From Elusimicrobiota bacterium (GTDB taxonomy: Bacteria > Elusimicrobiota > Elusimicrobia > FEN-1173), in contig JADJZR010000004.1 in assembly GCA_016715645.1 (NCBI GenBank), forward strand, positions 37,269 through 101,268: a DNA stretch of 64,000 bases, read 5' to 3'. The position numbers and the translations under genes were made by a program. Below are positions 8,464 through 50,889 of the stretch, piece after piece. The notes beneath the pieces were generated by a model. That model was not told where the DNA came from. It ran no database searches and was given only the letters and a program-made list of their open reading frames with translations. How positions within the stretch are numbered: position 1 is the stretch's first letter; every line of letters begins with the position of its first letter.

Positions 8464-10092
8464 TCACATTTCCGACGTCTTGATCGGCCTAAATTGATGT
8501 CGAATGCGGTCTCGTTGGGTGCGGCGGTTTAACCAGTGGGCAAGTCCAGCCAGGATGACGATGCCGGGAACGCCAAAATAGCCGGCCATTTTGACCAGAA
8601 ATCGCAGGGGGGCCGACAGGGGTTTTAGGGGTCGGTAAGGAGAGCTTTTGGGTGGAATCGCCAAATCGTGTTTTCCCCGTGTCAATGTTTGGGCCAGGGA
8701 CAGAATGAACAGGGCGTTCCCGTCCGGGTTGGGGACTTGGGGATTGGCAAAAAAAGAGGTGCCCATCACCACCAATTTTATGTTGGGGGCCTGACGGCGG
8801 GGGGAACGAAACGAAACCGTAGAGCCTTCCACCATCACCGCCAGTGCAAAGGGGCCCGTGTCTTTTTCTCGTCCGGCCGCGGCGAAACCTGTGGGCGGGT
8901 CGGACTCCCACTGTTTTTGCAGGCTGGGCGGGTCCACGTTGTAAAGGCCGGGCCAGATCCAACTTTCGGGCGAGGACCGCGCCAACACCGTCCAGCGCAA
9001 GGACGACGAGGGCGCAATCGTCGGCTGAAGCGGGCTGGCGAAAGGAAATCCCAACACATCGATATGCGAGAGGGTCCGGTGGCTCCGGTCCAGGTTGTCG
9101 GACCAAACGAAAGGAAAATATTTGACGAGAAACGATCCGTTGGCCGATCGGATCGCGATATTGCTACACTGGGGGTCCATCACAAAGTCCCGGTCCACCC
9201 GAACCCCGTAATGCTCCAGAAAGGATTCCAAACCCGTCTCTTGAGCCATGGACCGAAAATTTTGGGGAAACACAACCCGGCGGTTCAGCGCCACCACCGT
9301 CGGAATTCCCGACGAAATATAATGGTCCAACACGTCCAACTCTTCTTCCGATAGGGCTGTTTGAGGGCCCAGTAGAAAAATCGCGTCGGGACGCAAGCCG
9401 GGGTCTTCCTTTGACAACCGAGTAGGCTCCACATGGAATTCTTCAAACAACCGGCCCGCGGGCCCCTCTTTAATGTGGTTGGGTGATACTTCGTTGTGGT
9501 TGGAAATGAAGAAAAGGTTTTTTTTGTCCGGTTGAATCAAACTTCGGACACGGCTGGACAATTCGTATTCCAGCGTGTCCACGCTCTTAACGAACGGCAA
9601 CACCTCTTCTTTGTCGTTGTATCGCAAAACGATGCCCATGTGGCCTTCCCGCACTTGATACTGGTCCGACGCCACCTGGGTGAACCGGTCCGGGGCCATG
9701 TGAAGGCGCCGAAACTCTCGGTCCATGTCGTCGGACCCGTCGGGGGCGATCTGTTCCACAGTCCATCGACCGCGGGCGGCCCGTTGGTATTCCGCCAGCA
9801 GGTCGCGCACGAACCGGCCGTGGGTTTCATACGGTTGGGGCAATCCCGGCGTCAAATAAAAACGAACCCGAACAGTGTCCGGCAAAGAGGCGAGCAGTTC
9901 CCGAGTGGAGGGGGACAGCGAATAACGGCGATCTGAGGTCAAATCCCAACGGGCGAAAAAACGATCCCCCCAAAAATTCAAAGCGGCCATCACGACAACC
10001 CCGGCTCCCACCGCTAAGGGGGCCGCCCACCCGCGCCTTCGCGTTGTGCCCGGGGAGGTCAACGGCTTCTCCACGCCCGCAACCGAACCCAT
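8464..10092 (-). CDS. GldG-like auxiliary component of an ABC-2 transport system
   Basis: 542 aa, N- and C-terminal TM anchors and a Gldg-family architecture, located downstream of an ABC-2 ATPase and permease. Confidence 0.65.
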   Translation of the reverse strand: MGSVAGVEKPLTSPGTTRRRGWAAPLAVGAGVVVMAALNFWGDRFFARWDLTSDRRYSLSPSTRELLASLPDTVRVRFYLTPGLPQPYETHGRFVRDLLAEYQRAARGRWTVEQIAPDGSDDMDREFRRLHMAPDRFTQVASDQYQVREGHMGIVLRYNDKEEVLPFVKSVDTLEYELSSRVRSLIQPDKKNLFFISNHNEVSPNHIKEGPAGRLFEEFHVEPTRLSKEDPGLRPDAIFLLGPQTALSEEELDVLDHYISSGIPTVVALNRRVVFPQNFRSMAQETGLESFLEHYGVRVDRDFVMDPQCSNIAIRSANGSFLVKYFPFVWSDNLDRSHRTLSHIDVLGFPFASPLQPTIAPSSSLRWTVLARSSPESWIWPGLYNVDPPSLQKQWESDPPTGFAAAGREKDTGPFALAVMVEGSTVSFRSPRRQAPNIKLVVMGTSFFANPQVPNPDGNALFILSLAQTLTRGKHDLAIPPKSSPYRPLKPLSAPLRFLVKMAGYFGVPGIVILAGLAHWLNRRTQRDRIRHQFRPIKTSEM

Positions 10093-10775
10093 GTCCCGGC
10101 CAACGCCATTCCCGTGCCGGAAACAAAAAAGAGCACGTCACGGGAATCCACCACGCCTTTTAGAAAATTCTCAAAATGGCGATCGACGCTTAAAAAAGAA
10201 AGGATCTGGCCCGTAAGGCCTGGCACGTAGTTGGATGCCGGACCCACGAGATAGAAAGAAAAACACAACAAAAAGCCCCACAAAAACGCCACCACCGGAC
10301 TGCGCGTCAACGACGACCCGAACAGTCCCAAGGACGAAAAAAAACCGCCGAGAAAAAACAGGCCCGCATACCCCGCCGCCATTTGGCCCACGTCCGGCGG
10401 ACCAATGACGACCAACAGCAGTAAATAGTAGAGAGACAAGAGGACCCCCACCGACCACACGGCCAAGGCCGCGGCGAATTTTCCACCGACGATGTCGGCG
10501 TCGGTCAGCGGCAGGGTCCCCAGCATTTCGATGGTGCCGGATTTAAACTCTTCGGCGAACAGACGCAAGGTGAGCGCGGGCATGAAAATCGACAGGATCA
10601 GCGGAAGCGGACCAAAGAACCCGTCCAATGAGGCTTTTCCCTCCAATAAAAGAGATCCGGTGAAAAACCATCCCGAGAGAAGGAAAAAAAGGACGAGAAC
10701 GATGTAGGGCATGGGGGAATTAAAAGTCTCTTTCCATTCTTTTCGGGCTACCCACAGCGCACGGGTCCAGGTCAT
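10059..10775 (-). CDS. ABC-2 family permease (GldF-like)
   Basis: 238 aa with six predicted TM segments, between the ATPase and the GldG-like gene. Confidence 0.7.
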   Translation of the reverse strand: MTWTRALWVARKEWKETFNSPMPYIVLVLFFLLSGWFFTGSLLLEGKASLDGFFGPLPLILSIFMPALTLRLFAEEFKSGTIEMLGTLPLTDADIVGGKFAAALAVWSVGVLLSLYYLLLLVVIGPPDVGQMAAGYAGLFFLGGFFSSLGLFGSSLTRSPVVAFLWGFLLCFSFYLVGPASNYVPGLTGQILSFLSVDRHFENFLKGVVDSRDVLFFVSGTGMALAGTWVRLRAWRSR

Positions 10776-11734
10776 GGGGTTCGGGTCACTTGCCGAAAAA
10801 TTTCGTCGAGGGCGGCGGTCGGACGGCGCAGTTCAAGCAGAGGGCATCCCATCTCCGCCGCCAGACCATTGAGATCGACGCGGATGTCCGTTTCAACGGT
10901 CAACTCAAATCCTGGGCAACCGGGCTCTTCCTCGTCTTGCCGCTGAACCGTTTTGACGCCGTTCATGGCCGTCAATCGAGATTTCAGCGCCTCCGCCGGT
11001 CCTTTGAAGCGAACATACAGCGTGCCGTTTCCACTTAACCGTTGGCGGAGTTGGTCCAACGTCCCCTCGGCGGCGATGCGGCCCTGATGGAGGATAAGAA
11101 TTCGATCGCACAGACGTTGGGCTTCGGGCAAAATGTGGGTGGACAGCAAGACGGTCTTTTTTTCTTTCAGCCGAAAAATCAAATCGCGCACTTCTTGTTG
11201 TTGGTGGGGATCCAGGGCCGAGGTGGGCTCGTCCAGAATTAATATGTCCGGATCGTGAAGAATAGCCAGGGCCAGGCCCAACCGTTGCCGGTATCCCTTG
11301 GAAAGTTCCCCCACGTCCTTGTGCATGACGTCCACCAGGGAGCACTGACGGGCCACTTCGTCAATTCGGGCCGACGCGGTCAGCTTGTCCGGGATGCGCA
11401 GTTGGGCGAACAGGCGGAGGGTTTCCCACACGTTGAGGGATTCGTAGAGCGGGTTGGTTTCCGAGAGATATCCCACCCGTCGGCGGGTTTCCATTGGGTT
11501 TTCAAGGATGTCCACCCCGTCCAGGGTGACTGAACCGCCGGTGGGCGGCAAGTAACCGGTCAACACCCGAAGGGTAGTGCTTTTCCCCGCGCCGTTGGGG
11601 CCCAGCAACCCCACCACTTCGCCCGGACGGACTTGAAAAGAAATGTCCGCCACCGCCACAGTGGACCCGTATTCTTTAACCAGTCCGCGGACGTCCATCA
11701 TGGGCGATGCCCCGGAGCCAAAGGGATCGAGCAA
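10772..11734 (-). CDS. ABC transporter ATP-binding protein (GldA-like)
   Basis: Walker A GPNGAGKST, an LSKGYRQRL signature and a Walker B ILILDEPT. Confidence 0.85.
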   Translation of the reverse strand: MLDPFGSGASPMMDVRGLVKEYGSTVAVADISFQVRPGEVVGLLGPNGAGKSTTLRVLTGYLPPTGGSVTLDGVDILENPMETRRRVGYLSETNPLYESLNVWETLRLFAQLRIPDKLTASARIDEVARQCSLVDVMHKDVGELSKGYRQRLGLALAILHDPDILILDEPTSALDPHQQQEVRDLIFRLKEKKTVLLSTHILPEAQRLCDRILILHQGRIAAEGTLDQLRQRLSGNGTLYVRFKGPAEALKSRLTAMNGVKTVQRQDEEEPGCPGFELTVETDIRVDLNGLAAEMGCPLLELRRPTAALDEIFRQVTRTP

Positions 11735-11787
11735 CTTATAAGAACAAAGTGTGGTAACATGGTGTCACAATTCACGCCGAGTACATC

Positions 11788-12834
11788 ATGCCATTTATTT
11801 CAACGTCTCGAAAACAGGCTTTTCGCCACCGTCTTGCCCGGTGGTACAAACGACAAGGCCGACACGACCTTCCGTGGCGGGGGGCGTTTGCCCCTTATCA
11901 AGTCCTGGTGTCGGAATTCATGCTTCAACAAACAACTGTGGCCACGGTGATTCCCTATTTCCATCGGTTCCTCAGGTCGTTTCCAACGGTGGAAAAGTTG
12001 GCCCGGTCACCGTTGGAGAAAGTGCTTGAGCGATGGGCGGGGTTGGGCTATTACGCCCGGGCAAGGAACCTGCACCGAACCGCTAAAATCCTTGTTCGCG
12101 ACTACGGTTCCCGCTTGCCCCTGACACGAGATCAAGCCGAATCGTTGCCCGGGGTCGGGCCCTACACGGCGGGAGCGCTGTTGTCTTTTGCCCATAATTT
12201 ACCGGAAGCTTTGGTGGACGGTAACGTGATCCGGGTTTTGGCCCGTGTGTTTGGCGTGAAAGAAGACCCGCGTCAGCCCGCCGTCCGTCGCCATCTGTGG
12301 GCCTTGGCGCAATCATTGGTTCCTCCCAACGGGGGACGCTATTACAATTCCGCTCTCATGGATTTTGGCGCGACGGCGTGCACGACGGGACTGCCGGATT
12401 GTCCGGCCTGTCCTCTTTCTTCTCTATGTTGGGCCCGCCGAAACGACTGGGTGCAACGGTTGCCTGTCCCGAAACCCGATTCCCCCAAAACAGTTGTTCG
12501 GTTAAGCGCTCTGGTGGTGACTCAAGACGGCCGGATTCTATTGCGTCGTCGTCCCCTGGGCGGTTTGTGGGGGGGATTGTGGGAATTGCCCACCCTGGAA
12601 GGACCCGTCGTTCGAGGTCAACCCGTTGTTGTGGCGGGGGGAGAAATTGTTCCTGTCGGCCAAAGGGGGGCGGCGCGCCACGTTTTGTCTCATCGGGATT
12701 TGCGCGTGGACCTGTGGGAGGGGCGTCTTGTTCGACCCATCCATAAGTCAAAATGGGTTCGCCTCTCCGCCGTCCGATCGAAAGCTGTTTCAGCCTTGAC
12801 AGCGAAATTGATCGATCAATCTACCGCTCTTTGA
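11788..12834 (+). CDS. mutY: A/G-specific adenine DNA glycosylase
   Basis: HhH-GPD domain, a 4Fe-4S Cys cluster (C..C..C..C) and a C-terminal NUDIX-like domain. Confidence 0.85.
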   Translation: MPFISTSRKQAFRHRLARWYKRQGRHDLPWRGAFAPYQVLVSEFMLQQTTVATVIPYFHRFLRSFPTVEKLARSPLEKVLERWAGLGYYARARNLHRTAKILVRDYGSRLPLTRDQAESLPGVGPYTAGALLSFAHNLPEALVDGNVIRVLARVFGVKEDPRQPAVRRHLWALAQSLVPPNGGRYYNSALMDFGATACTTGLPDCPACPLSSLCWARRNDWVQRLPVPKPDSPKTVVRLSALVVTQDGRILLRRRPLGGLWGGLWELPTLEGPVVRGQPVVVAGGEIVPVGQRGAARHVLSHRDLRVDLWEGRLVRPIHKSKWVRLSAVRSKAVSALTAKLIDQSTAL

Positions 12835-17775: not shown

Positions 17776-18285
17776 GTGGGGGAGGGGGCCATGAGCGCAC
17801 AACTTCCAGATCGGATAGTGTTTCAAGGCAAGGAATACGACGTCATTACGTCTTTTCCGCCAAAGCTCTTTAACCCTATTTCGTGGGGATTAAAGCCGGC
17901 TTCTCCGCACGGGGCGTGTTTGCGTGGGACACTGTTGACCTACGAGGTCAAAGAAGAGACTCTTTTCCTCAAAGATCTTCGCTATTGGACCAAACAAGAA
18001 AATTTGTCGGAGCTGGTTCCAGGGGTTCCCTCGAAAGAAGACGAATTCGGCGGTTGTACCGGATATTTGTATTCCAACATTAACGCCGTCATTCCATGGA
18101 GCGGCGAGATTGTTATTGGCCGTTCATTTCTCTGGCCGCTCCTTTTACCCCGTGGATTTCAGCCGGCATGGAAATATAAGGAAGTGGTGAAACTTTTATT
18201 TGAGGGGGGATCTCTCCGAGCCTTCGGCGATGTAAGCCGAACCATGGCCCGCCTCCGCTCCGAAGTCCTCCAAGCCGTCCCCTAA
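17776..18285 (+). CDS. hypothetical protein in a low-GC islet
   Basis: 169-aa ORF with GC clearly below the surrounding genes. No recognisable family. Confidence 0.4.
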   Translation: MGEGAMSAQLPDRIVFQGKEYDVITSFPPKLFNPISWGLKPASPHGACLRGTLLTYEVKEETLFLKDLRYWTKQENLSELVPGVPSKEDEFGGCTGYLYSNINAVIPWSGEIVIGRSFLWPLLLPRGFQPAWKYKEVVKLLFEGGSLRAFGDVSRTMARLRSEVLQAVP

Positions 18286-18377
18286 CCCCCAAAGGGGACG
18301 GAGTATACTTATTCACTAGGAAACCAATTTGGTTTGTTAAACCCTTTGCTAAAGAACAGCTGTTTGGTGAAAATTTG

Positions 18378-18416
18378 TTTACAGGAAATTTACAAAATTG
18401 TTTCAATTGTTTTACA
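18378..18416 (+). promoter_or_regulatory. direct repeats TTTACA/TTTCA with ~11-bp periodicity; candidate OmpR/PhoB-family operator
   Basis: TTTACA at 18378, 18389 and 18411, and TTTCA at 18402, lie in an AT-rich 190-bp spacer upstream of ORF 18492..18998. Confidence 0.3.
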
Positions 18417-18491
18417 AGTTCTTAAGGGAAACTTAAGAGACTTTTTGTTCAATGTCGGCACGGCCTGATCCGGGTTTCCCAGGGGGAAACG

Positions 18492-48236: not shown

Positions 48237-48260
48237 GGGGGACGTATTTAGGTAATTAGG
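48237..48260. repeat. left terminal inverted repeat of the IS-like element
   Basis: GGGGGACGTATTTAGGTAATTAGG. Confidence 0.7.
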
Positions 48261-48298
48261 TTATTGACTTTCCAAGAATAGCTTGATATTAATTGACC

Positions 48299-49312
48299 AT
48301 GCCCCGTCAGGCGCGCCTTGATTTTCCTGGTCTTCTCCACCATGTAATCGCTCGCGGTATTGAGCGACGGCCGATCTTTAACTCTCCAACGGATTACGCC
48401 GATTTCTTGTCCCGTATCGAAATCAACTATTCTCGATATCCATGTCAAATATACGCCTGGGCCCTTATGCCAAACCACTTTCATCTCCTGGTTCGGTCAG
48501 GGGAGAATGGGATTTTCCCGTTCATGAAGAGGCTCATGACAGGTTATGCCGTCGGGTTTAATCATCGGCACAAACGCGCAGGGCATCTTTTTCAAAACCG
48601 GTACAAGTCTATTGTTTGCGAGGAAGGTCCCTATTTTCTTGAACTTATTCGGTACATTCATTTAAACCCCTATCGGGCCAAAATGGTCAACAATTTAGAG
48701 GAACTTTCGACATTTCCTTATACGGGGCACCCTGTTCTATTGGGCAAAAAGTCGTGCTCCTGGCAAAATCAAGATGGTGTTTTGTCCTTGTTCTCCCGAA
48801 TTTCATCGGAGGCAATCAGAGGCTATTTCCAATTCATGAAGGATGGGGAAAACCAGGGGTCCCGACCCGATTTGATGGGAGGAGGCCTGATCCGGAGCCA
48901 AGGGGGAGTTCGGGCGGTTCTTTCAAATAATCAGCCTGGGAACCGTGAAGCCTATGATTCCCGTATTCTAGGGTCGGGAGAATTTGTGGAGGGGGTTTTA
49001 AGACGGGCGGAAAAGGAAATGGAGTTGGAATACGAACTGAAAAGGAAAGGCGTGGGGATTCAGGATATTGCGAAGAAAATCGCTAAAGAGGAAGGGGTGG
49101 ATGAAGCCGACCTCTACCGTCGTGTAAGGACAGAGGCGGTATCCCGGGCGAAGGCGAGGCTGATTCATGTGGGTGTGGAATATTTGGGTCGGACGAACCG
49201 GGAAATGGCACTACTAACGAGGATGTCGGATCCCTCTGCCAGCGAAGCTCGGAGAAAAGGAGCAGGTTATTTTAGGGAAAACGAAGTCGCGGGATGGCTA
49301 TTACCTAATTAA
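48299..49312 (+). CDS. IS200/RAYT-like HuH tyrosine (Y1) transposase with a C-terminal HTH-like extension
   Basis: HuH motif PNHFHLLV and a RAYT-like LFQNRY...YIHLNP block. The ~150-aa C-terminal tail (..REMALLTRMSDPSASEARRKG) looks HTH-like. The candidate ATG follows TTGACT-17-TATTAAT. Confidence 0.7.
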   Translation: MPRQARLDFPGLLHHVIARGIERRPIFNSPTDYADFLSRIEINYSRYPCQIYAWALMPNHFHLLVRSGENGIFPFMKRLMTGYAVGFNHRHKRAGHLFQNRYKSIVCEEGPYFLELIRYIHLNPYRAKMVNNLEELSTFPYTGHPVLLGKKSCSWQNQDGVLSLFSRISSEAIRGYFQFMKDGENQGSRPDLMGGGLIRSQGGVRAVLSNNQPGNREAYDSRILGSGEFVEGVLRRAEKEMELEYELKRKGVGIQDIAKKIAKEEGVDEADLYRRVRTEAVSRAKARLIHVGVEYLGRTNREMALLTRMSDPSASEARRKGAGYFRENEVAGWLLPN

Positions 49313-49327
49313 CTAAATGCGTCCCCC
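49304..49327. repeat. right terminal inverted repeat of the IS-like element
   Basis: CCTAATTAACTAAATGCGTCCCCC, reverse complement 22/24 identical to the left end. Confidence 0.7.
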
Positions 49328-49353
49328 ACTGCGGGGACCGAAATGGAGGGGGC

Positions 49354-50889
49354 TTGCGTATTGCTTTGATTGATTTGGGTACTAACGCGGTGAGGTTTGA
49401 TGTTTATGAACTGTCGGGGCGGGGCGAACCGTGTCGGCTTCACCGGGAACGGCTGGCCGTGCGGTTGGGGGAGGGCGTTTTTGTTCGGGGCCGGTTGGCC
49501 CCGGCGGCCATCCGTCGGACCTTGGCGGCGTTTGTCAGTTTCAAAAAAACCTGTCATCGGTTGGGTGTCGATCGAATGACAGCGTTCGGTACCAGCGCCC
49601 TGCGCGATTCGGCCAACAGCGAACTGTTGTTAGGCCTGATCAAACGCCGCACCGGTATTGAGGTCCGTGTGATTTCCGGACAGGAAGAGGTTTGGTTGAT
49701 CGTTTAAGGCATTTTGGTCCATGAGAATCGTTTGGCCAAGGGGCTGGCGGCCTTGGTGGATATCGGCGGGGGAAGCGTGGAGATCACGCTGTGTCGGGGC
49801 CGTCGGTTGTTGAGGTCCACCAGTTTTAAGTTGGGCGTCGCCCGCCTGCAACAGGTCTTTTTAAAAACGATCCCTCCGCGCGCGGGGCCAGGGGAAAAGT
49901 CGCCCCTCGCCAAACTCCGTCGGCACGTTCGTGCCCTGTTGGCGGAGGGCGCTCCGCGAGGCGGGTGGCCAAACGTGTCTCGAATCGTGGGGTCGGCGGG
50001 CACCATTCGGGCCCTGGACCGGATTCATCGCGCCGCCGGCGGTGACTTTTTGACCCCCAAACACTTGAACCGATGGGCCGAGCATTTTTCAACCTTGTCC
50101 CGGACGGGGTTGGCCCGGGTTCCCGGCATGGATCCGAAACGGCCCGACACCATTCTGGCGGGGGTGGTTGTGTTGGAAGAAATAGCTCGGGCTTTAGGAT
50201 CTCCCCGGGTGGATCCGACGGATTATTCTCTCCGTGACGGCATGCTCGAAGAAGAAATCGAAACCGCCCGCCGGGGCGCGGGAACGGCGTTGGACTTCCA
50301 TTTAAAAGACGTTTTTGAGAAGGCCCGCGGGTGGGGGGTGCCGGTCCGTCATTTGCGACATGTGCAAGGGTTTGCCGAACGGTTGTTCGACCGCCTCGCG
50401 CCCCTTCACCGACTCGGCCGCGCCCATCGGGATTATTTAGTGGCCGCCGCGTGGCTTCAAGACGTGGGCGAGTTGATGAGCCCTGTCCATCACGAGCGCC
50501 ACTCGTATTACATGGTGAAAAACGGGGATTTTCCCGGAGTTGACGCGCGGGAATTGGAATGGATCGGGCAGTTGGTGCTGTGGCACAAAGGGGGCAAAAT
50601 TGATCGAACCGACGTTCCGTTCAAAGAAACCGCTCGCTGGAAAATATTTTGCCGGCTTCTTTCCCTGCTTCGAATCGTTGATGCTTTGGAAAAACCCCAA
50701 GCCCACCTTGTGACGCTCCGGGGGGTGCACCGGCAACGGGGTCGGGTGCGTTTGCGGCTGAAGGGCAATCGGTCGGCCGTGGATCTGGCCATTTTGAGGG
50801 TCGAACAAAAAAAAGAACTTTTCGAGAAAACTTTCCGTCGCACCCTCACCGCGGTGATTGATTCGTCTGCGAAAAAGTCTGTTCGTTGA
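49354..50889 (+). CDS. ppx: Ppx/GppA family exopolyphosphatase, interrupted by an in-frame TAA at 49705-49707
   Basis: ORFs 49354..49707 and 49714..50889 are in the same frame. Across the stop the sequence reads EVWLIV*GILVHENRLAKGLAALVDIGGGS, colinear with the Ppx/GppA motif. A C-terminal HD-like region is present. Confidence 0.75.

Follow-up and report, generated by a model that had tools for sequence, protein, structure and literature searches.

Genes that encode RAYT-like HUH/Y1 proteins and lie between terminal inverted repeats (TIRs) were given the name TIRYT, and the elements that they form the name TIRtron, by Di Nocera, De Gregorio and Rocco (2013, BMC Genomics 14:522, PMC3733652). 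In the passages of that paper that describe the repeats, GGGGWSAS is the motif of some TIRs and does not strictly define them, and repeat families (singles, dimers and clusters) are found in some genomes and in most there are none. The TnpA-Y1 subclass 2.1 (2.1.2) of Quentin, Siguier, Chandler and Fichant (2018, BMC Genomics 19:475, PMC6006769) was equated there with TIRYT; in its treatment of the C-terminal domain only the tip of the repeat was compared with DnaA boxes, and recognition of the tip by the helix-turn-helix (HTH) was doubted. Our literature search on TIRYT returned these two bioinformatic descriptions and no experiment. These widespread elements unite traits that are usually exclusive, a single-strand-specific HUH/Y1 nuclease and terminal inverted repeats in the style of double-strand transposition.

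Here we describe an intact copy with sharply defined ends, located in a 64-kb stretch of DNA (the window, which is the whole of the sequence analysed). The original prediction saw in it an IS-like unit complete in itself, in which inverted repeats enclose the gene of a Y1 enzyme with an HTH tail, and possibly a poorly described IS family. The family is indeed insertion-sequence-like, and it has already been published as TIRYT/TIRtron (PMC3733652) and as subclass 2.1 (PMC6006769). We interpret the feature, with a probability of about 0.8, as a TIRtron, that is, a RAYT-like HUH/Y1 enzyme with a DnaA-domain-IV-like HTH bounded by cognate inverted repeats. The element belongs to a kind already named, and the kind itself is not new; by the published descriptions of architecture its protein fits both TIRYT and subclass 2.1. 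What is new here is the two-part organization of the repeat and a conserved promoter geometry which would imply a leaderless mRNA.

Extent of the element and its terminal repeats

The coordinates of the features are collected in Table 1.

Table 1. Features of the element and its right flank, in window positions.
Feature	Positions	Strand	Remarks
Whole TIRtron	48237..49327	+	1091 bp, tip to tip of the repeats
Left terminal inverted repeat	48237..48263	+	Tip GGGGGACG at 48237-48244 conserved; inner part variable
Promoter-like region	48264..48292	+	-35 TTGACT 48264-48269; TG 48284-48285; -10 TATTAA 48287-48292
TIRYT gene	48299..49312	+	337 aa + stop
HUH/Y1 nuclease domain	48299..48868	+	aa 1-~190; Pfam Y1_Tnp, Foldseek
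Gly-rich linker	48878..48985	+	aa 194-229; GGGLIRSxGG ... DxRILGxGxFV, conserved
DnaA-domain-IV-like helix-turn-helix domain	49046..49273	+	aa ~250-325
Right terminal inverted repeat	49301..49327	-	Covers the final codons and the TAA stop (49310-49312)
Hairpin GTCCCC-CACTGC-GGGGAC	49321..49338	+	Straddles the right tip; not reckoned part of the element

The predicted inverted 24-mers are present as GGGGGACGTATTTAGGTAATTAGG at 48237-48260 (+) and GGGGGACGCATTTAGTTAATTAGG at 49304-49327 (-), with 22 of the 24 positions matching. With up to 3 mismatches allowed, the 64 kb contain just these 2 matches to the 24-mer, against 0 expected from 100 shuffles. The inverted repeat lengthens to 37 nt at 81% match, and the inner part of the left copy holds two direct repeats of ~8 nt, TTAGGTAA and TTAGGTTA. 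With respect to the published GGGGWSAS, the window tips GGGGACGT and GGGGACGC agree at 6/8 and 7/8 positions, respectively; the tip of a relative (L012) is GGGGACAT. When the ends of the relatives were aligned (51-52 sequences), GGGACG was invariant and the T at +10 near-invariant, with GGGGACGY as the tip consensus. A matched repeat pair of their own (score ≥13, median 20) was found in 55/65 metagenomic loci, the median score between different loci being 9. The position of the repeats relative to the gene is also maintained in the relatives, the left tip being most often 57 nt from the ATG (mode) and the right tip a median of 23.5 nt past the stop codon. Family-wide, the repeat is formed by two parts, the tip and a lineage-specific inner portion of ~18 nt, which often consists of two direct repeats of ~8 nt.

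The similarity of the inner repeats followed that of the C-terminal domain (partial rho 0.30) more than that of the N-terminal domain (0.16), the relationship being weak. A recognition code leading from the HTH to the inner repeat was considered and set aside, given this weak partial correlation and the counter-example of the window and locus L025. The window element and that of the JBDRON genome have near-identical inner repeats with proteins 43% identical and differing HTH helices, so a simple code of this type is not evident.

The element is AT-rich, as had been proposed, with a GC content of 0.489 versus 0.572 for the window (8 points lower). The ppx gene begins 26 nt downstream, and because of this short distance it is probably transcribed by read-through from the element. 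Three further assemblies of this species have the element at the same site. The TIRYT gene is the sole Y1 gene of the window, no second copy of the element was detected in these 64 kb, and as far as can be seen from them the element is single-copy in its host genome.

It was also proposed that GTCCCCC hairpins bound the element. The right hairpin exists (arms GTCCCC at 49321-49326 and GGGGAC at 49333-49338), with a folding z-score of 0.05; the TCCCCC...GGGGGA pair on the left gave z = -0.40 and many comparable pairs occur in the window. At 110 ends of relatives, hairpins containing the tip were no recurrent feature of the flanks (7 inverted versus 11 direct arrangements). With folding at chance level and no recurrence, these hairpins were dismissed as substrates of the enzyme and are not counted with the element. 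A REP/REPIN census, which the original prediction had suggested, yielded in the window just the 2 copies of the repeat. GGGGACG occurs 9 times per strand versus 9.3 expected, and GTCCCCC is likewise at chance frequency; with GGGGACG at this frequency, the window holds no REP-like population. No palindromic REP unit with a GTAG head was found in the 64 kb, and the search against Rfam gave nothing relevant.

The encoded protein and the promoter-like region

From its ATG the protein has 337 aa, one less than originally given; an alternative TTG start upstream would give 339 aa. The HUH motif and the RAYT-type YIHLNP block that had been recognized in it were confirmed. The match to Pfam Y1_Tnp covers aa 13-121 (E = 2.3e-10), the HUH motif is formed by H60-F61-H62 (nt 48476-48484), and Y119 of RYIHLNP (nt 48653-48655) is the candidate catalytic tyrosine; none of H60, H62 and Y119 varies among 112 homologues. 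A sequence search against the PDB found nothing but 4er8 (E = 0.99), and given this weak result a comparison of folds was required. By means of Foldseek, the nuclease domain of the AlphaFold model was matched to TnpA_REP (4er8_A, E = 4e-7, TM 0.73), and also to the TnpA structures of IS608 and ISDra2. In NCBIfam there was one match only, REP_Tyr_transpos (NF047646), with 58.6 bits, below the equivalog cut-off of 80.

The linker, residues 194-229, was modelled with pLDDT <50; despite this low confidence, its residues G194, G196, L224 and G225 are invariant. The C-terminal HTH proved to be real: this domain resembles DnaA domain IV (1j1v_A, TM 0.69, rmsd 3.1; also 3pvp_B), and Bac_DnaA_C was detected in 51/112 homologues, at aa 249-319, and HTH_23 in 13/112. 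The tail of the window protein itself had no Pfam match. The search for homologues of the protein returned >8000, and a search with just the C-terminal tail gave matches to 680 cluster representatives (clusters at 50% identity). In comparison with a homologue of 80% identity, dN/dS was 0.084 for the whole protein, with values of 0.047 in its N-terminal and 0.116 in its C-terminal part, dS being saturated against more distant relatives. The catalytic residues are intact and the gene is under strong purifying selection. Taken as a whole, the product is predicted to be a single-strand DNA nuclease-transposase joined to an HTH by a flexible, conserved linker.

The TTGACT/TATTAAT promoter-like signals noted in the original prediction were not called by the generic promoter/terminator scan at the left end of the element; they do fit exactly the profile of the family. 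In an ATG-anchored profile of 66 loci, TTGACA occupies positions -35 to -30, TG -15/-14 and TA -12/-11, and the TTGACT and TATTAA of the window coincide with the -35 and -10 boxes. Ahead of the TIRYT ATG no Shine-Dalgarno sequence can be seen. This geometry would place the start of transcription at the ATG itself, and thus the TIRYT mRNA is predicted to be leaderless. The -35 box directly follows the left repeat on its inner side, so that TIRYT bound to this repeat would repress its own synthesis.

Mobility of the family and alternative explanations

Relatives with 89, 80, 79 and 66% protein identity are placed in different gene neighbourhoods, and five different gene contexts are seen in this range of identity. 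For the 89% and 80% relatives, whose contexts are unrelated, the tips are the limits of the nucleotide similarity to the window (48238/48239 to 49325); similarity to L004 runs over 48238-49325 (76.7%) and to L116 over 48239-49325 (86.5%). In addition, a 2.7-kb block shared at 99.9% identity by two genomes whose identity is 79% elsewhere ends 3 nt beyond a right tip. Where the gene is found in another genomic context, its repeats accompany it. In the Elusimicrobiota MAG JBDRON01 it was possible to find one full element together with at least six miniatures made of a repeat pair (79-218 bp) and five solo repeats, and these miniatures fold as single strands with z = -10 to -11. The coexistence of a full element and miniature repeat-pair copies in one genome indicates that the TIRtron lineage is or was mobile, a mobility that belongs to the family and is not claimed for the window copy. 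Extra or solo ends were present nearby in 6/67 loci. At L004 and L010, passenger genes are located between alternative or duplicated right ends.

The search for related genomes lacking the insertion gave no clean empty site among the loci of ppx homologues examined. Two relatives with Ppx 81% and 76% identical are without the element, but their upstream genes differ; in a third, with Ppx 85% identical, the corresponding position is occupied by another TIRYT (43% identity). The check for target-site duplications, made at 60 loci, gave no signal either. All the JBDRON copies are bordered by TA on both sides, from which a TA duplication was suspected. At the 60 loci, however, non-palindromic flank dinucleotides matched in inverted orientation only (11 inverted-only versus 0 direct-only), so that an extension of the repeat is the better reading of the flanking A/T bases, although a TA duplication may still have occurred.

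An unlikely alternative is that of a domesticated, immobile host gene, devoted to the processing or regulation of single-stranded DNA, whose repeats are operator or relic sites, as the TIR counterpart of the RAYT "REPtron". The combination of a single copy, purifying selection and absence from plasmids and viruses is what Bertels 2017 (PMC5581495) takes as the signature of domesticated RAYTs, and the locus presents all of this: one copy in 64 kb, at a site identical in the three other assemblies of the species, a dN/dS of 0.084, no full-length TIRYT match in 72,556 plasmids and none in the viral contigs searched. It is also in agreement with this alternative that most TIRYT genes are without a repeat family in their own genome, according to the survey part of Di Nocera 2013. 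The left repeat, adjoining the promoter, could be a mere operator, but this leaves unexplained why the stop codon is covered by another repeat, conserved to the same degree (55/65 loci), and also the similarity across contexts that ends exactly at both tips. Against domestication stand as well the different neighbourhoods of the 89%, 80% and 79% relatives, the miniatures and solo copies in a related genome and a GC content 8 points under that of the host. The original prediction had named, as evidence against itself, a gene conserved in synteny in distant relatives without the repeats; what was found instead is that 55/65 loci have their own pair. Taking together this result, the repeats that travel with the gene and the miniatures of a related genome, the reading as a self-contained IS-like unit was upheld.

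That the element is a canonical member of RAYT/REP or of IS200/IS605, with the GTCCCCC hairpins as substrates, is very improbable and is already contradicted by the data. TnpA_REP is the closest solved structure, REP_Tyr_transpos the sole NCBIfam match, and a GTCCCC/GGGGAC hairpin does lie at the right edge; nevertheless, the NCBIfam score is under its cut-off, GGGGACG shows no REP-like population, and the two hairpins, with z of 0.05 and -0.40, are non-recurrent. Besides, the 337-aa protein with its HTH tail and the ends, which are inverted repeats instead of subterminal hairpins, do not correspond to either system, and subclass 2.1 genes are without nearby REPs in the descriptions given by Quentin 2018. 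As for a chance inverted repeat around an ordinary gene, the presence of just two repeat copies in the window would suit it, but the shuffles expect 0 matches and the same layout is repeated at dozens of independent loci, by which this explanation, the least probable of all, is already refuted.

Proposed mechanism and comparison with known systems

For the TIRtron, we propose that at each end the HTH binds to the inner repeat in duplex form (TTAGGTAATTAGGTTA) and that the HUH domain would bind the single-stranded tip, nicking at or next to GGGGACG through a 5'-phosphotyrosine link on Tyr119. When single-stranded, the two repeats of the same strand may pair into a stem, like the very stable miniatures, in which case one strand would receive both cuts, at the foot of a REPIN-like hairpin. 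Excision and insertion could follow in the style of IS200/IS605, without target duplication. The inverted ends are equivalent sequences on opposite strands, which is not easily reconciled with a strand-specific HUH enzyme except under the stem model.

A more far-reaching version, which we regard as possible though rather doubtful, is a new HUH transposition route in which the HTH reads the lineage-specific duplex inner repeat and delivers the Y1 nuclease to the GGGGACG tip, the ends acting either symmetrically, each on a different strand, or together as a single intramolecular stem, with a window copy that is active and also drives ppx. If true, such a route would yield REPIN-like miniatures, solo ends and the capture of neighbour genes between alternative right ends (L004, L010). 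The two-part repeat, the promoter at the left repeat, the miniatures in JBDRON01, the passenger genes and the fact that no target duplication was seen are handles for biochemistry. In Elusimicrobiota and related uncultured phyla, genes whose only label is "RayT" or "transposase" belong to this distinct type of element.

With the RAYT/TnpA_REP system (E. coli YafM, PDB 4er8) the element shares the best structural match of its nuclease domain and a gene, typically single-copy, bracketed by inverted cognate repeats, and with REPINs the folding of a relative's miniature repeat pairs into long hairpins. RAYTs differ in their length (~165 aa) and are without the HTH tail, and REPs are themselves palindromic, have a GTAG head and are present in hundreds of copies. 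The HUH/Y1 fold and the Pfam family are common to the TnpA of IS200/IS605 (IS608, ISDra2); those elements produce no target duplication, and none was detected here. In contrast, they have no terminal inverted repeats, and are characterized by asymmetric subterminal hairpins, a fixed target tetra- or pentanucleotide, a TnpA of ~130-150 aa and, often, a tnpB. The layout is that of classical DDE insertion sequences, namely a left repeat with an overlapping promoter, one HTH transposase gene and a right repeat overlapping the end of the gene, and MITE-like derivatives are also shared; the catalytic domain here is HUH/Y1 and no direct target duplication was detected.

The agreement with TIRYT/TIRtron as described in PMC3733652 includes a RAYT-like HUH/Tyr protein that exceeds RAYTs in length, terminal inverted repeats in the place of REPs around the gene, a fixed distance between repeat and gene, the overlap of the 3' repeat with the gene and a G-rich tip. 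As in the descriptions of subclass 2.1.2 (PMC6006769), the protein is among the longest of the Y1 group and its tail is like Bac_DnaA_C, HTH_23 or HTH_28; the lack of REP-like sequences nearby is shared with subclass 2.1. With respect to the motif GGGGWSAS as published, the tip found here, GGGGACG(T/C), departs at positions 7-8. The host range in the corresponding passages of Di Nocera 2013 does not name Elusimicrobiota, and the sections of that paper and of Quentin 2018 that deal with these elements do not include the division of the repeat into two parts, the promoter geometry of a leaderless mRNA or passenger genes between two right ends. Finally, whereas the discussion of recognition in Quentin 2018 concerned the tip, the candidate site for the HTH here is the variable inner repeat.

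Delimitation of the element and its putative promoter

Features of the element, in window positions
Feature	Position	Strand	Remarks
TIRYT ORF	48299-49312	+	sole ORF of the region; 337 aa counted from ATG
Left inverted repeat, GGGGGACGTATTTAGGTAATTAGG	48237-48260	+	22/24 match to reverse complement at right end
Right inverted repeat	49304-49327	-	22/24 reverse complement of left GGGGGACGTATTTAGGTAATTAGG
Promoter-like boxes	TTGACT 48264-48269; TG 48284-48285; TATTAA 48287-48292	+	exact fit to 66-locus profile

In the 64-kb window the 24-mer repeat gave just two matches at ≤3 mismatches, and none in 100 shuffles; a repeat finder lengthened the inverted pair to 37 nt at 81%. The inner part of the repeat holds two direct repeats of ~8 nt, TTAGGTAA and TTAGGTTA, and the last ORF codons and the TAA stop fall within the right repeat. 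The GC content of the element was 0.489 versus 0.572 in the window and 0.57-0.58 in the 5-kb flanks. The inverted 24-mers and the AT-richness were thus as described in the original prediction, as was the single ORF, for which the proposed 338 aa were slightly too many. No other Y1 gene lies in the window.

When 66 loci were anchored on the ATG, TTGACA was seen at -35..-30, TG at -15/-14 and TA at -12/-11, counted from the A of ATG. The TTGACT/TATTAAT signals previously proposed coincide with this profile, and the -35 box adjoins the left repeat on its inner side. A generic scan did not call this site in the window because its TATTAA is without a final T. There was no Shine-Dalgarno sequence ahead of the window TIRYT ATG, and with the boxes so placed, transcription would begin at the start codon and yield a leaderless mRNA.

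The GTCCCCC hairpins that had been pointed out in the flanks are incidental. As single-stranded DNA, the right GTCCCC hairpin and the left TCCCC...GGGGA region folded at the level of shuffles (z = 0.05 and -0.40), TCCCC...GGGGA pairs are abundant across the window, and tip-containing flank copies in 55 related loci (110 ends) were inverted in 7 cases and direct in 11; the hairpins were discounted on these grounds. The heptamer GGGGACG occurred 9 times per strand in the window versus 9.3 expected. A separate hairpin, CCGTCCCC-TAACCCCCAAA-GGGGACGG, was observed at 18275-18301 over the stop codon of the ORF 17776-18285. The stem has the same sequence as the initial 8 nt of the repeat tip of the Elusimicrobiota MAG JBDRON01 (GGGGACGG), and an AT-rich stretch with repeated TTTACA motifs follows (18300-18450). 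A terminator is one possible reading of this hairpin, a relic tip pair another.

Domains and conservation of TIRYT

Pfam placed Y1_Tnp over residues 13-121 (E = 2.3e-10), and the REP-associated tyrosine transposase model of NCBIfam scored 58.6 bits, under its cut-off of 80. More than 8000 homologues were found, the closest in Elusimicrobiota MAGs and others in Thermodesulfobacteriota/Deltaproteobacteria, nearly all 325-340 aa long. N59, H60 and H62 (HUH motif) and Y119 of RYIHLNP were invariant in an alignment of 112 homologues. The AlphaFold2 model (mean pLDDT 83.5) was confident in the N-terminal alpha/beta domain and in the helical C-terminal domain, with low confidence at 194-229. Its top Foldseek match in the PDB was E. 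coli TnpA_REP (4er8_A, E = 4e-7, TM 0.73), followed by the IS608 and ISDra2 transposases; DnaA domain IV was also matched (1j1v_A, TM 0.69, rmsd 3.1 over 88 columns; 3pvp_B). Over residues ~250-319, Bac_DnaA_C was recognized in 51/112 homologues and HTH_23 in 13/112. Both the HuH and RAYT-type tyrosine motifs and the HTH-like tail of the original prediction are supported by these results. The tail alone (aa 190-337) retrieved 680 representatives of 50%-identity clusters, and it occupies positions ~190-330 in the matched full-length proteins.

Against an 80%-identical homologue, dN/dS was 0.084 (0.047 in the N-terminal part and 0.116 in the C-terminal part), so the whole protein is under purifying selection. 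The segment 194-229 (48878-48985) had the lowest pLDDT (<50) yet is among the best-conserved sequence, with the pattern GGGLxRSxGG ... DxRILGxGxFV and several invariant residues. This combination suggests a segment that folds solely upon contact with DNA or a partner.

Repeats and gene in relatives and at the ppx site

The close relatives at 66-89% protein identity lie in gene neighbourhoods unrelated to one another: P0002 (89%, locus L116) near a hypothetical and an AHSA1 gene, P0003 (80%, L004) near a 201-aa gene and an ABM gene, P0004 (79%, L117 and L118) downstream of a PLD-like gene, and P0008 (66%, L010) near glyoxalase and acetyltransferase genes. Nucleotide similarity to the window was confined to 48238-49325 for L004 (76.7%) and to 48239-49325 for L116 (86.5%), and so runs tip to tip. 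All these relatives and more distant ones, a deltaproteobacterial one among them, have their own inverted pair beginning GGGGACG. In a metagenomic sample of 80 loci at 41-51% identity, both flanks were present in 65, and 55 of these reached an own-pair score ≥13 (median 20); the control, left ends against right ends of other loci, had a median of 9. GGGACG was invariant at the ends, and T at +10 varied very little. From the start of the tip to the ATG the modal distance was 57 nt, and from the stop to the end of the right tip the median was 23.5 nt. The inner ~18 nt, frequently two direct ~8-nt repeats, are lineage-variable, yet match between both ends of an element. The repeats belong to the TIRYT gene and move with it. 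The architecture and the intact catalytic residues are established, as is, for the lineage, the movement of the unit with its repeats from one context to another.

Three other assemblies carry the element at this same site (98.7-99.6% identity). Among the relatives identified by their Ppx there was no clean empty site, because those with Ppx 81% and 76% identical, which have no element upstream of ppx, differ in upstream genes and have a conserved AT-rich leader absent from the window, and the 85% relative (L033) carries a different TIRYT (43% identity), whose own repeats stop 3 nt short of ppx. This L033 unit (40-1117; TIRYT of 330 aa, repeats AGGGGACGTTGCTTCT...) is at the same place upstream of ppx, with a tRNA gene 3' end ~20 nt from its left tip; this points to a hot spot for insertion or to replacement. 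In 60 elements the dinucleotides at the flanks matched in the inverted sense in 11 cases and directly only when palindromic, so there was no sign of the target-site duplication that had been looked for; the A/T-rich flank is better read as an extension of the repeat. The flanks of the window element are CTC / ACT and have neither feature.

With 26 nt between the right tip and the start of ppx, ppx probably receives read-through transcription from the element. The window ppx (49354-50889) has an in-frame TAA at 49705-49707, which is CAT in two other assemblies of the species, within a cluster of changes at 49691-49718 (CCC>TTT 49691-93, CCC>TTT 49703-05, T>A 49707, C>T 49718). It could be a true pseudogene, localised damage or an assembly error.

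Scanning 185,579 species genomes with GGGACGNANTTNGNTAATTAGG gave 17 stretches, 12 of them in JBDRON01, in which a single full element (L025) is accompanied by six repeat pairs enclosing merely 79, 112 or 214-218 bp and by five solo repeats; the window's own genome was not among the sources of these stretches. Nearly all copies read TA-GGGGACGGAGTTAGGTAATTAGGTTA...CGTCCCC-TA. Its repeat is almost identical to that of the window; the proteins share just 43% identity. As single strands the miniatures fold at -30 to -32 kcal/mol (z = -10 to -11), in which they resemble REPINs. The miniatures and solo repeats (L020-L026, L016, L027, L029, L030, L032) have TA on both sides in almost all cases, which may be a target duplication or the terminus of the element, and the 215-bp type is present in either orientation.

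Additional repeat copies within a few kb were seen in 6/67 loci. L004 has solo right ends at 9004-9069 and 12453-12513, with the ABM and ADH (zinc alcohol dehydrogenase) genes between the element right end and the second solo end (region 9004-12513). In L010 (2941-5197) the right end is followed by a GNAT acetyltransferase gene and then by a second right end, and this outer copy matches the left repeat perfectly (22/22). These passengers suggest gene capture via alternative right ends. L117:2302-5037 and L118:275-3010 share a 2.7-kb block at 99.9% identity, containing a tRNA-Ser 3' half, the PLD-like gene and TIRYT; it ends 3 nt beyond the right tip, and the adjacent racemase-queC region is just 79% identical. 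This looks like recent transfer or recombination, with the tip serving as junction. At L118:2987-3010 the downstream Asp/Glu racemase begins within the right repeat, where ATGCGTCCCCCT provides its ATG and opening four codons (MRPP) in place of the usual N-terminus, which in L117 is MKNQFRPI. Direct tandem copies of the tip alone occur in the right flank of L092 (CGTCCCC-TTTTGT three times after the right end) and in L044, L012 and L036; L036 also has its whole left repeat duplicated, 39 nt apart. These duplications may be traces left by ends that were nicked and rejoined several times.

Possible mechanism and known elements

The HTH would bind the duplex, lineage-specific inner repeat; partial correlation with inner-repeat similarity was slightly higher for the C-terminal domain (0.30) than for the N-terminal one (0.16). 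The conserved HUH domain would nick the conserved tip via Tyr119, and the two repeats, once single-stranded, could pair as a stem, something of which the miniatures are clearly capable. Both cuts would then be made in a single strand, the pattern of IS200/IS605 and REPINs, with no target duplication. Alternatively, opposite strands might be nicked symmetrically, a novelty among HUH enzymes.

In the chief rival reading, improbable in our opinion, this copy would be a domesticated gene that does not move. That reading draws on the single copy in the window, the strong selection and the lack of plasmid carriage, a pattern tied to domesticated RAYTs (Bertels 2017, PMC5581495); no full-length relative was found among 72,556 plasmids or in viral contigs. 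Domestication leaves unexplained the second repeat, the tip-to-tip similarity and the derivatives in relatives.

Literature searches found no experimental work on TIRYT or TIRtrons, and we know of no ISfinder family for them. RAYT-like genes lying between terminal inverted repeats, with GGGGWSAS common to several of the repeats, were described by Di Nocera et al. (2013, PMC3733652), who coined TIRYT for the protein and TIRtrons for the units and reported that some of the repeats make up families of moderate size, arranged singly, as dimers and in clusters. Quentin et al. (2018, PMC6006769), in their account of TnpA-Y1 subclass 2.1, assigned to it 20 of 26 TIRYTs, defined it by a C-terminal Bac_DnaA_C, HTH_23 or HTH_28-like extension and no REPs, and doubted HTH reading of the GGGG tip, which is unlike a DnaA box. 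The IS-like unit originally predicted therefore stands, not as an undescribed family: the window element has the features of TIRtrons and of subclass 2.1, with the tip variant GGGGACGY, a partial fit to GGGGWSAS. It is a real, well-delimited TIRtron, of a kind already described but experimentally untouched; the mechanism of the family is puzzling, and can be tested directly with the help of the comparative features gathered here.
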